From: a virus
Lineage: Duplodnaviria; Caudoviricetes
Virus record (IMG/VR): IMGVR_UViG_3300028601_000020
Direction: 5' to 3' (one strand)
DNA: 64,000 bases
Positions within the stretch are counted from its first letter, which is position 1. Every line of letters starts with the position of its first letter. Under the pieces are notes generated by a model that saw nothing but the letters and a program-made list of their open reading frames with translations, searched no databases and was not told where the DNA came from. The position numbers were made by a program, and so were the translations under genes. This document shows positions 30,513 through 40,426 of this stretch, in pieces.

Positions 30513-31301
30513 ATGGCACTAACTTCTTTTTATTACAACAAATCCCTCAGAAGAATCGTCGTTCTTTTTGGCACTCTTTTTAATGGATACACAATCCAAA
30601 AAACAAGCGGAGCGTTCATTGAAGTTCCGTTGTCTTATTCTTCAAAGAAAAAGTGGTACGTTCAACTTAAACAGAATTTAGACAAGACTAATCTTGAAGC
30701 AATCATTTTTCCAAGAATGGGGTTCCTGCTTACCAGTATTGGAATTGATTATGAAAGAAAAACGTCAAGTCTAAATTATTTTGCGTCAAAACACGTTGAT
30801 CCTAATCAGTTAAATAAAATTCATGTTCCAACGCCAGTCACGTTGACCTTTTCTCTTTTCATTGCGTCAAAAACAATGGATGAAGGACTTCAACTCATTG
30901 AACAAATTGTTCCTTATTTTGATCCAACTTTCGTAGTTGAGATTGATGAATTAGATTCTTTTGAAACTCCAAGAGATATTCCGGTAACTTTAAATTCCGT
31001 TTCTTTTGATAATGATTTTGTAGGAGCCTTTGACGGAAACGATTTATACACATGGGACTTGCAATTTACAGTGGAAACTTATCTTTATAAAAACATTACT
31101 CCTTCAAAGATTATTAAGAAAGTTGTCGTATATACCCATATTGATGCGGCAGACGGAGTAGAAGAAAATTATAAAGAAAAATACACAGCAGAAGTTGATC
31201 CATTCACGGCTGTCATTGACGATGAATGGGCTGTCTTGGAATCTTGGGGATTAGTTGATAAAGACGAAGAAGCATTCCCAGAGCCTGAACCAACCCCATA
31301 A
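30513..31301 (+). CDS. gp15: tail sheath stabilizer/terminator gp15
   Basis: 'FYYNKSLRRIVVLFGTLFN', 'VPLSY', 'PRMGF', 'QLIEQIVPYFDP'. Confidence 0.95.
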   Translation: MALTSFYYNKSLRRIVVLFGTLFNGYTIQKTSGAFIEVPLSYSSKKKWYVQLKQNLDKTNLEAIIFPRMGFLLTSIGIDYERKTSSLNYFASKHVDPNQLNKIHVPTPVTLTFSLFIASKTMDEGLQLIEQIVPYFDPTFVVEIDELDSFETPRDIPVTLNSVSFDNDFVGAFDGNDLYTWDLQFTVETYLYKNITPSKIIKKVVVYTHIDAADGVEENYKEKYTAEVDPFTAVIDDEWAVLESWGLVDKDEEAFPEPEPTP

Positions 31302-32068: not shown

Positions 32069-32332
32069 TTATTTTTTCGTCAATTCAATAATTTTGTCGG
32101 CGATTTCTTTCATGGAACCAGTCATTGCGTCAATTGAATGAACCTCTTCTCCTTTGAACTTGACACATAAAGTGTCTTTATGATTCCAAATATGATGATA
32201 TTCAATTGAAAAATTAGGATATTTTGGGCTCTTCCAAATTTCAGTGAAATAATCATTAGGAAATTCAACATTCACGGAATTTTTTTCATAATCAGTGAAA
32301 GATTCAAAAATGCTCTGGTCATTATTAGACAT
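32069..32332 (-). CDS. hypothetical protein
   Basis: GGAG RBS, coupled to the upstream ORF. Confidence 0.65.
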   Translation of the reverse strand: MSNNDQSIFESFTDYEKNSVNVEFPNDYFTEIWKSPKYPNFSIEYHHIWNHKDTLCVKFKGEEVHSIDAMTGSMKEIADKIIELTKK

Positions 32333-32561
32333 GTTTCTCTCCCAAAAGTTTAATCTTACAAAGAATCTTGTCTATTATATTACTTTCAAAAATTTTTCTG
32401 TCAACGAAAAAGAAGATACATCCACCAATAAAATTTGCGATAACGGTTTGCCAAAATCCATCTCCAAGTGAATAGATGACGAACCATAACAGCGGAGTAG
32501 AAAGTTGCCAACGGAACAAATAAATCAAAAACCTTGGTGAGAGTTTAGCCGACTTTAACAA
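32325..32561 (-). CDS. small membrane protein
   Basis: AAGGAG RBS; hydrophobic 'YLFRWQLSTPLL...IANFIGGCIFFFVDRKIF'. Confidence 0.7.
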   Translation of the reverse strand: MLKSAKLSPRFLIYLFRWQLSTPLLWFVIYSLGDGFWQTVIANFIGGCIFFFVDRKIFESNIIDKILCKIKLLGEKHV

Positions 32562-32749
32562 TGTTAGAATCTCCTTAAAATGATAGGCAAGCCTAAAACG
32601 CGGAACATTTTAATTTATTGGTGCTGAAAACGTCTTAAATTCGTCTGTAATGAAATATTGCTTCAATGCATAGTCTGACATGAGTGAATGGTTAAATCTT
32701 GCTTAGAATCAATCCTGCTTATTCCTAGATGATATAATTATATATTCCT

Positions 32750-33111
32750 CATAAACTCCGTTCAATATCCTATAAACCTCTTCAATGAAGTATAAAATAA
32801 AGACCAATCGGAGCGCAGCGGAGATTGTGTCTTATTCGGCGACAGCCGAATTATAATACAACCCGTTGAACGAGATTTATGCTTTTCTGCAATGAAGTCT
32901 TCAATGAAGATCAACTAGGAAAAGTTGATATAGGTATCCAAATTAATTTTTAAATGGTTTGTATAAAGTTAATCAAAATTTTTCATCCTTATTAGCTCTA
33001 TACAAACCATTCAACGATTTAGTGTTTCAACCTGTTCATATATCGTCAAGATAAATTCGGCTACGCCTCATTGATACATTCAAGCTCCGCTCCGCTACGC
33101 TTGAAGTATCA
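32750..33111. repeat. dyad-symmetric hairpin array (candidate replication origin)
   Basis: Hairpin 32800-32833 (loop GGAGCGCAGCGGA) is mirrored by hairpin 33072-33111 (loop TCCGCTCCGCTAC); AGCCGAATT/AATTCGGCT mirror; central 13-bp stem 32953-65/32999-33011; TCTTCAATGAAG occurs twice. Confidence 0.6.
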
Positions 33112-33208
33112 TATTCAATAATTTATATGGTTTTGATTATTTGGAATTTTTTATTTGAAGATTAAAACTTGAAAACTACTTGATAGGATCAAAAGACACA
33201 GGTTACCC

Positions 33209-34020
33209 CTGTCAAGAATTTTAAGGTGACAAAAGAGGCTTATTTTATAAAACAACGATATTATTAAGACATAAAATTCTCACAAAATTGTATCAGATAA
33301 ACAACAGCAAAATAATTTTCAAAAAATGTTGTTTTTTAAAATAAACCTCCCCATCGTCTTAAAATTCCCGACAGAGCATTTTGGTTAATTTTTTTGTATA
33401 AGCGGAATTCTCTCAGCCACGGACATTTTGAGATTTTTTCTTTGTCTCAAATATGGAGAGTTTTTATTTTGATTTTCTATACTATTAGAAAATCCCCCTA
33501 AAACTCTCGGCTTACCTATTGTCGTCTGTCGGTCAGGGTCATCTTTCCAGACCCACCAAAAACCAACTCTTGTTAAGAGCTAGACCGATCATCAGACACG
33601 CGCCGGGGAGGTCTACTGAACCTGCTTAATCAAAAGTCTGCAATCCTCAAACTGCAACCCTTTGATTTCATGCTCAACGCGCCCTTGCTTATACTGTCTT
33701 TTCCCTTTTCCGGTTTTATGACAATTAATGTCTATAGGTAAAACCGTCGCGTTGGTTAAAAAGGTGCCAACTAAGCGATAGGTGCCATGAAGCGATACAA
33801 AAAGAGCATTATACCTTATTGGCTCTTCATGTTTCTTCAGCGGGCATGAAACTGATCAATGAAATCAAGCAACACGGATAAATGTTGTAGTACCTTGAAA
33901 GCATTGAGGTTTCTTTACTTTATACATAACTAAGTTGAATTTTACTCTGTCCGGGTTCCTAAGTGAGTCTTGAATATAAAAACATTTCTTCGCCGGTCAT
34001 TTTTCAAGATTCACAAATAT
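33209..34020 (-). ncRNA. candidate large structured non-coding RNA (~0.8 kb), family unassigned
   Basis: No ORF of 60 aa or more; many nested helices, with G-U pairs in the core favouring the minus strand; sigma70-like promoter at 34057-34029. Confidence 0.55.
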
Positions 34021-34028
34021 TATTTTAT

Positions 34029-34057
34029 ACATTAAAGCATTGGCAAACTTTTGTCAA
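34029..34057 (-). promoter_or_regulatory. sigma70-like promoter pointing into the non-coding tract
   Basis: TTGACA-17 nt-TAATGT on the minus strand. Confidence 0.55.
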
Positions 34058-34397
34058 CACTTTTATTTAGTATTTCTGGATTTTGTAAATAAGATTTTTG
34101 GCATTCAATGCATAAACATACTTCAGTTGAAACCAGTTTTCTTTTCACTTTTTCTGTGAATGTCAATGATCTACCGTGAAATTCTGCTCCGCACTTTTCA
34201 CAAATCAAGTCAGATTTTGGGATTTTGGAGTATTCTTCCCTTTTTAACCTCGTTAAATCTTCTATACGATTTGGTTTTCTTGGCTTTCCGGATTTAAGTG
34301 GTTTGGTTTTATCTTTGCAGTTGCTACAAAGATACATCAAAGTATAATTTCTTTTGCTTACGCCTGTGCCGGGACCATAAACAAAGGGGGGTTCCAA
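34032..34397 (-). CDS. Cys-rich putative zinc-finger protein
   Basis: CSNC, CEKC and CIEC motifs; basic; start codon uncertain. Confidence 0.55.
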   Translation of the reverse strand: MEPPFVYGPGTGVSKRNYTLMYLCSNCKDKTKPLKSGKPRKPNRIEDLTRLKREEYSKIPKSDLICEKCGAEFHGRSLTFTEKVKRKLVSTEVCLCIECQKSYLQNPEILNKSVDKSLPML

Positions 34398-34432
34398 AAA
34401 ACATCAAACTACAATGTTCACACCTATAAGTT

Positions 34433-34651
34433 TTAGGGGTTCTCCCTTTTTTCATTGATTTTCTCCTTGTATTCTGCAACATTTATAATTTCATCTGGCT
34501 GCTCCCAATCAATATTTAGTTCACGGTAATCGGCTACTTTTTTTGTGGGTTTCCAGATTTTGACTGTTGCAGAAGGAGCCACTGCTTTATTGTCATAAAA
34601 AGCAAGATACGGAAGAGATTCGGACAGGGAAGAGTTATCAATAATGTTCAT
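34433..34651 (-). CDS. hypothetical protein
   Basis: GGAG RBS upstream, 72 aa. Confidence 0.6.
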   Translation of the reverse strand: MNIIDNSSLSESLPYLAFYDNKAVAPSATVKIWKPTKKVADYRELNIDWEQPDEIINVAEYKEKINEKRENP

Positions 34652-34726: not shown

Positions 34727-35422
34727 TTAATTTTTATTCCTATTTTTTAATGTTATAGCCAATCCAAACAATCCAACACCAAACAAAAACATAGTGGATG
34801 GTTCAGGAACAGGATTATGTGGCTTATCAGGAATATCACACGAGACGCAACATGTTTTGCATTCAGTATAATTTTCTTCAAAATATCGTATTCCTTCATT
34901 TACAGTTGACATATCAGTTTTTATTAGGTACGGTTTTAATACCGTCTCCCAATAACCATTATTAAATGAAGGTGGATTTCTATGATTTGATGGTTTACTC
35001 TGTTTGTTCGGTTTACTTACAATATCGTTTGGATCGCCGCATCGTAACCAAGATTTTCCAAATCCATACAATTTTGAACTGATCCTTGTGTAGTCTGTTT
35101 TTTCTCCAAGTTCAATTGATTGTGCGATTATATCCCATTCCTTATAATCCATGCAATCATATTTTATTTCCTTTGGATGTTTGGATGGATTAGGATGATT
35201 AGAAGGTGGTAGGACCGGTTTATATGGTTTCCAGACGTATTCAGGATGATATCCTGTTGTCACTATCGTTTGTGTTGAAACCTCATAAAACGCTTCCGTA
35301 TTGGTCTTTGTGTATGAACTGCATTCGTTAGAGCAACAATCAATGGACAATGCTCCAGCAGTCTCCACAGTTCCAAGAATAATTCCTAAAGATATTAGTG
35401 CAACTGAGAGACGTTTATACAT
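34727..35422 (-). CDS. PEP-CTERM sorting-domain protein (231 aa)
   Basis: AGGAG RBS before ATG 35422; signal peptide MYKRLSVALISLGIILGTVETAGA; C-terminal NPVPEPSTMFLFGVGLFGLAITLKNRNKN (PEP + TM + basic tail). Confidence 0.88.
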   Translation of the reverse strand: MYKRLSVALISLGIILGTVETAGALSIDCCSNECSSYTKTNTEAFYEVSTQTIVTTGYHPEYVWKPYKPVLPPSNHPNPSKHPKEIKYDCMDYKEWDIIAQSIELGEKTDYTRISSKLYGFGKSWLRCGDPNDIVSKPNKQSKPSNHRNPPSFNNGYWETVLKPYLIKTDMSTVNEGIRYFEENYTECKTCCVSCDIPDKPHNPVPEPSTMFLFGVGLFGLAITLKNRNKN

Positions 35423-36376: not shown

Positions 36377-36748
36377 ATGGAAAAAGATATCACTCTTTAT
36401 GAACAGACAACGGAAATTTCAAATTCTGAATCAGAAATGATCCAAGATTTAGAAGAAGCAAGAGAAACGTATAAAAATTTGATTGAACAGGGGAAAAACG
36501 GACTTCAATTATCTTATGACTTGATAACTGCCACGGAACATCCAAGGGCGATTGAAGTTTTTGCGAATTTAATTAATTCTGTTGCGAATATTAATGGAAA
36601 ACTTGTTGATCTTCAGTCAACCAAAAATGAAATCATAAAAAAGAAAGTTGAAAAACAAGAAAGTGTTGGTGGAAATAATGTAACAAATAATTTATTTGTG
36701 GGTTCTCCTGCGGAACTCCAGGAAATGATTGCTTCAATGAGGATTTAA
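36377..36748 (+). CDS. gp16: terminase small subunit gp16
   Basis: 'EHPRAIEVFANL', 'NNVTNNLFVGSPAELQ'. Confidence 0.92.
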   Translation: MEKDITLYEQTTEISNSESEMIQDLEEARETYKNLIEQGKNGLQLSYDLITATEHPRAIEVFANLINSVANINGKLVDLQSTKNEIIKKKVEKQESVGGNNVTNNLFVGSPAELQEMIASMRI

Positions 36749-38500: not shown

Positions 38501-40426
38501 ATGTCAATGGCAACACAACTTTCTCCGGGTATCGTCGCCCGAGAATGGGATTTGACCCAAATCGTTCCACAAATTGCTACTGCTGGCGCGGCTTATGTTG
38601 GTGCATTTCAGTGGGGACCGGTAAACAAAGTCAAACTTGTTTCTTCTGAAGAGAACCTTGTAAATATTTTTGGTACTCCAGACTCGGACACTTTTCTTCA
38701 CTGGTTCTCTGCAAAAAACTTTCTTGATTATTCTCGAAATTTGAAGCTGGTTCGTGTGGTTGAAGCAACTGCATTGAATGCGACTTCAAACGGAACCGGC
38801 GTCCAGATTATTAATGAAGCAGAATGGATTGATCAGCACTCGGCAGGAACAAACACTGTCGGTGAATTTGCTGGTCGTTATCCGGGTGAGATGGGCAATT
38901 CAATTAAAATTGAGATGGCTGACGGCAAGTCATTCGGTGCTGTTACTTCTGTGACGCTTACTAATGTTGGTTCTGGATATACAACTGTTGATGATGGTGC
39001 AACTGTAACCTTTTCTGCTCCCGGTGGAACCGGTGTAACTGCAATAGGAACCCTTACTGTTGTGGCTGATGTTGTAACTGGAATTGAAATTACAGAAAAT
39101 GGTTCTGGTTATCGGGTCGCCCCGACTGTAACAATTCCGCCCCCTTCTGGTGGTGGCACTGCTGCAACAGCAAAAGCAAATCTTTGGGCTTATCGTAATC
39201 AGTTCTTGACTAATCCGGGAACTTCTGACGAAGCCGCTTCAATGGGTGGCGCGAATGATGAAATGCATATTGTTGTCCTTGATGCAGATGGAAAAATTAC
39301 TGGTGAGGCCGGTAATGTTCTTGAACGTTTCTCGTTTGTTTCTAAGGCAAGTGATATCAAGTATTCTGATGGAACAACTGCATATTATGTCAGTGTTCTC
39401 CGTGACCGTTCAAAATATGTTTTTTGGATGGACCATCTTGAATCAGATTGGGGACAGACTGCATCTAATATCACTTTTACACAAATGGATACTCCGCATT
39501 CAGTAACTCTTTCTGGAGGAACTGATGGTAATGATGTAACAAATGATGAACTTATGCCTGGTTGGGATATGTTCAAAAATGTTGAAACAATTGATATCGG
39601 TATCCTCATTTCTGGTGCTGCTGACAATGTTCTGAAAGAATATCTTATCCAGAATATTGCAGAACACAGAAAGGACTGTGTTGCTTGTATTTCTCCTAAT
39701 CTGGATGATGTTGTTCATAACAACACAAATGAAGTTTCAGACGTTCTTGCTCTGAGAAACGTTCTTACTTCATCTTCATATGGTTTCTTTGATTGTAACT
39801 GGAAATACATGTTTGACCGTTACAATAACACCTTCAGGTGGATTCCTTGTAACCCTGACACTGCTGGTCTTATTGCATACACTGATGAAATTCGGGATGC
39901 ATGGTGGTCTCCTGCTGGTTACAATCGTGGCCATCTTAAAAACGTTGTTAAACTTGCATGGAATCCTGATAAGACTGATCGTGATGAACTGTATCAGAAT
40001 GGCGTGAATCCGATTGTTACTGTTGCTGGTGAAGGAACGATTCTTTTAGGCGACAAGACAATGTTGACCAAACCCTCTGCTTTTGATCGTATCAATGTCC
40101 GTAGACTGTTTATTACTCTTCGGAAGGCGATCACGAAAGCAAGCCGTTATGCACTCTTTGAATTCAATGATGCATTCACCCGTCTTCGCTTTATTCAGAT
40201 TGTTGAACCGTATCTCCGTGATGTTGAGGGCAGACGTGGTATTATTGGTTCCAGGGTGGTGTGTGATGAAACAAATAACACTGGTTATGTAATTGACAGT
40301 AATGGATTTGTCGGTGATATTTACGTGAAACCGGCAAGGTCAATCAATTGGATAACTCTTAACTTTGTCGCAACTCCGACAGGAATTGACTTTGACGAAA
40401 TTATTGGAACATTTGGTGATTTCTAA
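38501..40426 (+). CDS. gp18: tail sheath protein gp18
   Basis: 'LSPGIVAREWD', 'FQWGP', 'WWSPAGYNRG', 'SAFDRINVRRLF', 'KPARSINWITLNFVA'. Confidence 0.97.
   Translation: MSMATQLSPGIVAREWDLTQIVPQIATAGAAYVGAFQWGPVNKVKLVSSEENLVNIFGTPDSDTFLHWFSAKNFLDYSRNLKLVRVVEATALNATSNGTGVQIINEAEWIDQHSAGTNTVGEFAGRYPGEMGNSIKIEMADGKSFGAVTSVTLTNVGSGYTTVDDGATVTFSAPGGTGVTAIGTLTVVADVVTGIEITENGSGYRVAPTVTIPPPSGGGTAATAKANLWAYRNQFLTNPGTSDEAASMGGANDEMHIVVLDADGKITGEAGNVLERFSFVSKASDIKYSDGTTAYYVSVLRDRSKYVFWMDHLESDWGQTASNITFTQMDTPHSVTLSGGTDGNDVTNDELMPGWDMFKNVETIDIGILISGAADNVLKEYLIQNIAEHRKDCVACISPNLDDVVHNNTNEVSDVLALRNVLTSSSYGFFDCNWKYMFDRYNNTFRWIPCNPDTAGLIAYTDEIRDAWWSPAGYNRGHLKNVVKLAWNPDKTDRDELYQNGVNPIVTVAGEGTILLGDKTMLTKPSAFDRINVRRLFITLRKAITKASRYALFEFNDAFTRLRFIQIVEPYLRDVEGRRGIIGSRVVCDETNNTGYVIDSNGFVGDIYVKPARSINWITLNFVATPTGIDFDEIIGTFGDF

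Follow-up and report, generated by a model that had tools for sequence, protein, structure and literature searches.

A predicted large structured non-coding RNA with a fixed gene neighbourhood in a group of T4-like phages

The DNA analysed here, a stretch of 64,000 nucleotides referred to below as the window, comes from an uncultured T4-like phage whose large terminase is at most 54% identical to those of isolated phages. The A/T content of the window is ~65%, and the T4 late promoter octamer occurs in it 15 times, compared with 4.3 expected. The genes between gp15 and gp16 form a minus-strand island, which constitutes a transcription strand switch, and within this island a first-pass annotation had delimited an ORF-free gap at 32562-34031. 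The gap is indeed present and is the sole one of at least 450 nt without a 70-aa ORF in the 64 kb. The features of the locus are as follows:

30513-31301, plus strand: gp15, the tail sheath stabiliser, which bounds the island on the left (Pfam PF16724, E 1.8e-61)
32750-33180, no strand assigned: A/T-rich block with DNA-type hairpins and short direct repeats, origin-like and separate from the RNA (from inverted repeats)
33184-33961, minus strand: conserved body of the predicted large ncRNA, ~780 nt (alleles align only from ~33961 to 33184)
33186-33212, minus strand: 3' end, a weak terminator-like hairpin and U-run (pattern scan; conserved between alleles)
33207-33376, minus strand: long A/U-rich 3' stem, with the least sequence conservation of the element (about 55-65%)
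33428-33508, minus strand: pair of hairpins on the 3' side of the core (shared by both alleles, 7 double changes)
33524-33681, minus strand: G+C-rich core (from folds and allele comparison; order and motif also in L042, L055 and L221)
33687-33701, minus strand: 5' strands of two stacked long-range helices (from base pairing and allele comparison)
33747-33913, minus strand: 5' domain with helices a-d (double changes in helices a, b, c and d)
33963-34014, minus strand: allele-specific 5' leader hairpin (folds in the window; missing in the L003-type allele)
34029-34057, minus strand: sigma-70-type promoter candidate, 9/12, whose -10 element overlaps the ORF-B stop codon
34032-34482, minus strand: ORF-B, immediately upstream of the RNA, encoding a basic C4 zinc-ribbon protein (in seven homologues four Cys are invariant)
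34433-34651, minus strand: ORF-A, which precedes ORF-B and has a 72-aa product that belongs to no known family (some residues invariant across five lineages)
36377-36748, plus strand: gp16, small terminase, right anchor of the island (Pfam PF11053, PHROG 445)

The order ORF-A, ORF-B, RNA on one strand is fixed in six lineages, while the other island genes vary; in six lineages, too, an A/T-rich hairpin block resembling an origin comes after the RNA. ORF-A ranges from 72 to 101 aa across lineages, has homologues only in this phage group and gave no Pfam or PHROG match; its structure model is poor. The predicted structure of ORF-B is a confident small model (pLDDT 80), for which fold searches returned nothing above Z 2.9 or below E 0.04. 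In the window, ORF-B is split by an extra C in a run at ~34386-34391 (C6, vs. C5 in L035 and L052, where the frame is intact), which is either an assembly error or a real slippage variant; the conserved C-terminal ribbon remains in a 121-aa frame. Elsewhere in the island, a PEP-CTERM protein gene (34727-35422; Pfam E 2.6e-07) is shared by the window, L043, L049 and L052 and is missing from L002 and L003. The large terminase of L052 (6413-10303) is split, with NUMOD3 endonuclease genes on both sides, as it is in two distant relatives; that of the window is whole.

The predicted ncRNA would be ~840 nt long if counted from its likely start near 34022. Its two ends are able to pair, with duplex energies of -13.9 kcal/mol in the window, -15.3 in L003 and -17.3 in L043, and such 5'/3' pairing is possible both in the clade of the window and in that of L055 and L221. 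In place of the leader hairpin, L003-type alleles have 40 or ~200 nt of other sequence. The 5' domain contains two near-invariant loops, 33821-33808 and 33766-33756, which are complementary over 5 bp; L221 and L055 have loop partners of 5 and 6 bp at comparable places, and the duplex, of different letters in the window, L221 and L055, is worth -4.7 to -6.1 kcal/mol. Judged by eye, the two loops are a candidate kissing loop. Loop 33821-33808 also looks like a ribosome-binding site plus AUG; a conserved leader peptide in the RNA tract was rejected, since the reading frames differ between alleles.

Of the two long-range helices, that between 33701-695 and 33198-192 (7 bp) is invariant and stacks on the core-closing helix, while that between 33694-687 and 33403-396 has two double changes. 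The core itself consists of helix f, with a long, variable hairpin and a smaller one inside it, then a C-run and an irregular stem, which leads to a three-way junction with two hairpins. A k-turn reading of a core loop was dropped, as it fits only partially, in L055. At the 3' end, the terminator-like hairpin overlaps the closing helices and competes with the long 3' stem; in the pattern scan that found it, the overall terminator count is not above chance. An alternative long-range pairing of ~12 bp, 33746-33734 with 33519-33508, would run across the core-closing helix, and at matching places 6-7 bp can pair in the other allele; it is possibly a pseudoknot or a second conformation. Among the 13-mers in the 64 kb, no antisense target stands out.

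All of the helices named in the first-pass annotation are recovered. Those at 33963-74/34003-14, 33628-33667, 33524-33597 and 33456-33508, as well as the long stem, have pair probabilities >0.5, and 33711-17/33740-46 and 33396-403/33687-694 pair perfectly, with double changes in a second allele. The tract that it had outlined is real; its limits need adjusting, as the body reaches ~33184 and the hairpin at 33963-34014 is unconserved in the other allele. Its reading of the locus is supported, but neither the closing helices at the 3' end nor the conserved linkage of the genes had been noticed.

Close relatives of the phage (terminase or gp15 95-100% identical) carry one of two RNA alleles, namely: a window-type allele in L002, L035, L052 and L225 (99% identity) and an L003-type allele in L003, L043, L045, L049 and L050, which is 67-69% identical to that of the window. 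Two deep RNA alleles circulate among near-identical phages. In L043 and L049, identity to the window is 94-100% over 32231-33130 and drops to 54-80% in the RNA and ORF-B, with a sharp mosaic boundary at ~33230. The downstream block is 96-99% identical across RNA alleles. Since the alleles swap at this boundary against a constant downstream block, the RNA need not co-evolve with the block.

Relative to shuffled sequences, the element folds at z -6.8 on the minus strand and -5.6 on the plus strand, the former being the lowest value among the element and the control windows. The controls (seven 826-nt windows, 10 shuffles each) span +3.4 to -5.4, so the folding z alone is not decisive. The lowest of them is a stretch of the tail sheath gene, 39001-39826, at about -5.4 on the plus strand, a noisy value. 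More telling is the comparison of alleles. The L003 allele, folded independently, adopts the same architecture (z -5.9), and in a sequence-only alignment of window-type and L003-type alleles 31 of the 135 consensus pairs differ at both positions. When 20 helices (126 pairs) were matched by hand, 82 pairs were unchanged, 40 had double changes, 4 had single changes, all to or from G-U, and none was broken; the matched helices contain 14 G-U cells and no A-C. If four helices whose register is uncertain are left out, double changes make up 18 of 88 pairs. The helix table represents one phylogenetic contrast, with helices taken from minus-strand folds, and no p-value is derivable from it; with that of L055 and L221 (see below), the covariation comprises two pairwise contrasts, too few for a phylogeny-aware test. 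We regard selection on the RNA fold as a firm result, of which there is little doubt.

The assignment to the minus strand had been argued from a promoter upstream of the tract and from G-U pairs. The promoter hexamers are where they had been placed, but the site scores only 9/12 and is unlisted by the promoter pattern scan. By a strand-neutral count, a G-U bias for the minus strand holds in the sister alleles (9 G-U vs. 4 A-C, and 7 vs. 5) but not in the window (4 vs. 6), and the G-U argument is weak on its own. The call nevertheless stands on other grounds, because sister alleles have perfect promoters and distant ones have late promoters, and because the orientation of the upstream genes, GAAA tetraloops found in the homologues and a folding energy lower on the minus strand in 6 of 7 sequences agree with it. 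Specifically, L001, L003, L043, L049 and L050, all of the L003 type, have a 12/12 sigma-70 site in the same interval, pointing into the RNA, and in L042 and L055 an exact T4 late promoter precedes a common 5' motif by 37-46 nt. An octamer scan of the window's clade found no exact late promoter upstream of the RNA. The promoter region of L003 (8700-8830) is tandemly duplicated, 65 nt apart, and in L001, L043, L049 and L050 the ~200-nt leader separates the promoter from the RNA.

Searches with gp15 led to L037, L042 and L055, at 73%, 55% and 45% identity, and to L221, a relative of L055. In all four, a non-coding stretch directly after gp15 contains a minus-strand G+C-rich core and is followed by an A/T-rich hairpin block; related RNAs occupy an unchanged position and point the same way where the identity of gp15 is 45-55%. 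L055 and L221 have an RNA in common (BLAST E down to 1e-21) which covaries separately, in 35 of 115 pairs, some of them in misaligned columns, and has the same helix order as the window. Their folding z is modest (-2.3 and -1.7, respectively), and that of L042 is -5.5. A profile of L055 and L221 matches the L042 core at E 0.0035 in a small search.

A core descriptor comprising the small hairpin, C-run, irregular stem and closing motif, written post hoc after the sequences had been seen, matches all window-type and L003-type alleles, L042, L055 and L221, always in this gap and on the minus strand, with one background site in 4.86 Mb. The covariance models are clade-specific: R1, built from the window and L003-type core, does not match the distant cores (L055 only at E 3.1), R2, built from the L055, L221 and L042 core, does not match those of the window, L003 and L037, and whole-length alignments between the clades are at chance level. 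On the strength of synteny and the post hoc motif, we think it quite probable that the RNAs of the window, L042, L055 and L221 form one family. L037 is a possible member: it has no match to the core descriptor, the 12 nt that it shares with L221 are no longer than a chance match to ICP1, also a 12-mer, and the motif of loop 33821-33808 recurs in it and in L221. In L227 (2250-2900), gp15 is followed by a minus-strand promoter-like site, ~250 nt of partly structured sequence and a hairpin block, the large RNA being missing; an 18-nt stretch there is like the L221 core entry, and the locus is possibly a minimal form of the element. No matches to isolated phages were obtained by BLAST with the RNAs of the window and L055, and a metagenome scan with a gp15 alignment found distant T4-like phages only, none of which has the RNA. 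When viral and genome contigs were scanned with motifs, the known members and chance matches in G+C-rich DNA came up, with no copies outside this phage group.

The novelty that had been claimed for the RNA holds up against Rfam, in which neither the window nor its homologues match any family; across the window and nine loci, the scans gave chance-level matches only. The models of GOLLD and ROOL have no match at gathering score in the window, none at E<=10 on 32300-34500, and none in L003, L037, L042, L055 and L221. Equally, no group I or group II intron matches at E<=10, and the flanking genes are not halves of one gene; RNase P RNA and tmRNA models do not match at E up to 10. Two short stretches that look like RNase P pair with each other, unlike in RNase P. 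We found no description of this RNA in the literature, with subscription journals outside the coverage.

By length (>500 nt), non-coding nature and many covariation-supported helices (from two pairwise contrasts), the element resembles the large ornate phage ncRNAs in kind. The genes of GOLLD and ROOL often adjoin tRNA genes, which GOLLD may even contain, as a tendency rather than a strict rule; no tRNA genes were found in the window or in seven loci. ROOL is likewise a large, ornate phage or prophage RNA with long-range contacts; the present RNA differs in having no match to its model, in being longer and away from tRNA islands, and in belonging to a different phage group. It resembles OLE RNA in being a large structured RNA kept beside the gene of a possible protein partner. 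OLE RNA is encoded on chromosomes and has a membrane protein as its main partner, whereas the RNA described here does not match the OLE model and its neighbours are an unfamiliar 72-aa protein and a zinc ribbon, both small and soluble-looking; a Pfam search found no OLE partner family among the upstream ORFs.

GOLLD is a phage-encoded RNA of ~800 nt with many covarying stems, candidate kissing loops and unknown function, which has been pulled down with ribosomes and, like ROOL, forms RNA-only cages in vitro (PMC12286853). The predicted RNA shares with it the length, phage origin, covarying stems, variable and conserved regions and candidate kissing loops. Unlike GOLLD, it matches no Rfam model, has no tRNA neighbours and lies in the gp15-gp16 island of T4-like phages behind two conserved small ORFs. 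The closest precedent in life style is found in ICP1, where an ORF-less RNA of ~800 nt between gp139 and gp140 is the most abundant phage transcript (PMC7567579). Both have this length, occupy an ORF-less kilobase gap in a lytic myophage without tRNAs and fall in no Rfam family. They differ in context, the ICP1 gap has neither a profile match nor the core motifs, and the expression of the ICP1 RNA has been demonstrated, while that of the present RNA is predicted.

These comparisons, together with syntenic homologues and covariation in two separate clades, support the original proposal of an unclassified large minus-strand phage ncRNA. We take the RNA to represent a real and uncatalogued family of large structured RNAs, predicted by sequence comparison in one group of T4-like phages and occupying a fixed gene neighbourhood.

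As to what the RNA does, we give barely better than even odds to a stand-alone, trans-acting large ncRNA that serves as a scaffold or decoy, probably with ORF-B. On this view the RNA gene, which follows ORF-A and ORF-B on the minus strand, would be driven by a sigma-70 promoter in the clade of the window and by a late promoter of the T4 type in two or more distant phages. The transcript would adopt a compact, end-paired, multi-domain fold, in which stacked long-range helices close the G+C-rich core and a loop-loop contact joins two 5' hairpins. During infection it may then act in trans, providing a structural scaffold or a decoy, as has been proposed for GOLLD and ROOL, probably in complex with the co-inherited basic zinc-ribbon protein ORF-B. 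This reading is favoured because of the paired ends, the terminator-like 3' end and the late promoters of distant members, and also because the alleles swap against a constant block, which exists without the RNA in L227. Several observations count against it: the clade-specific covariance models miss the other clade and inter-clade alignments are at chance, tRNA neighbours are missing, unlike at many GOLLD and ROOL genes, and the window ORF-B is frameshifted while the RNA is intact. In addition, the constant place just upstream of the origin-like block also fits a role in cis.

The main rival builds on that place. The block at 32750-33180 is 66-72% A/T, in a window that itself is ~65% A/T, contains hairpins and repeats and lies behind a promoter; five of the window's 14 GCGNAGC sites fall within it. 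Comparable blocks, unrelated in sequence, follow gp15 in L037, L042, L055, L221 and L227, and perfect GNA-loop hairpins are present in the matching block of L003, L042, L055, L221 and L227. The block may be a replication origin, into which the RNA would read in cis, with an R-loop priming replication. The fold would then control priming as in ColE1 RNA II, and the products of ORF-A and ORF-B would serve as initiators or accessory proteins, in the manner of RepEA and RepEB of T4. Such an arrangement recalls T4 oriF, oriG and oriE with repEA/repEB, where small genes likewise precede a promoter that is aimed at an A/T-rich block with repeats, located at a transcription switch. A T4 origin consists of a promoter and a downstream A/T-rich unwinding element, often where transcription changes strand (PMC3016281), and the island is one such switch. 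The RNA points into the block and its GNA-loop hairpins in all lineages, with direct repeats in some, and the weak terminator, in competition with the long 3' stem, is consistent with read-through into it.

Divergent alleles that share one fold, as the two alleles here do, are also known from plasmid incompatibility RNAs. ColE1 RNA II needs its fold and has an antisense partner, of which the window gives no sign. T4 origin transcripts, on the other hand, need no fold: R-loop formation in T4 is sequence-independent and requires ~100 bp (PMC3016281), and would therefore not select 800 nt of structure. A cis role is further disfavoured by the pairing of the RNA's two ends with each other, by the promoter and hairpin block that L227 has without the large RNA, and by the inferential nature of the origin activity itself. 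Moreover, the promoters of L042 and L055 are late ones, and T4 oriF and oriG are shut off at the late stage. On this balance we consider origin coupling unlikely, at something like one chance in a handful.

A narrower proposal, a decoy for ribosomes or translation factors, has only a small chance of being right. Here, loop 33821-33808 would mimic a ribosome-binding site and start codon and capture host 30S subunits or a translational regulator. A pattern derived from the loop matched eight unrelated phage sequences resembling translation starts, the motif recurs in L037 and L221, and GOLLD co-purified with ribosomes in a pull-down (PMC12286853). The spacing to the AUG is short, however, no peptide is conserved, the loop of L055 differs, and the loop can be explained by its partner loop of 5-6 bp.

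A shade less probable still is a ribozyme or the remnant of a mobile element, such as an ORF-less group I or II intron. The size, nested long-range helices and paired ends of the RNA would suit it, the element segregates as a block, and relatives have homing-endonuclease insertions in their terminase. Against this, the searches for group I, group II, RNase P and tmRNA matches (E up to 10) were empty, the element interrupts no gene and has no copies elsewhere, and it keeps one position and the same neighbours across gp15 identities of 45-98%.

DNA-level structure or chance intergenic folding without a functional RNA, for which the coding control at z -5.4, the wobble count of the window, which does not favour the minus strand, and the DNA-hairpin-like character of the adjacent block may be cited, is the least credible explanation, given long-range multi-branch helices that survive many double changes, matched helices with G-U and no A-C (chosen, it should be noted, from minus-strand folds), GAAA tetraloops in the homologues and dedicated promoters.

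To our knowledge, only a few classes of very large structured phage RNAs are known, and their functions are open. The stand-alone, trans-acting RNA that we favour would be a further family of this kind, from T4-like lytic phages, in which natural alleles already mark the helices. Unlike GOLLD and ROOL, it has a fixed neighbourhood of two small conserved genes and an origin-like block, which points to possible partners and to a process in which it may take part. Structure probing or imaging can be carried out on RNA transcribed in vitro, with no need to culture the phage. It is conceivable, though rather improbable, that the locus is a three-part module, in which a complex of the RNA and the zinc ribbon controls the adjacent origin, and the RNA alleles are specificity types between co-infecting phages. 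If true, this would give a large ornate RNA of phages both a defined partner and a defined process.
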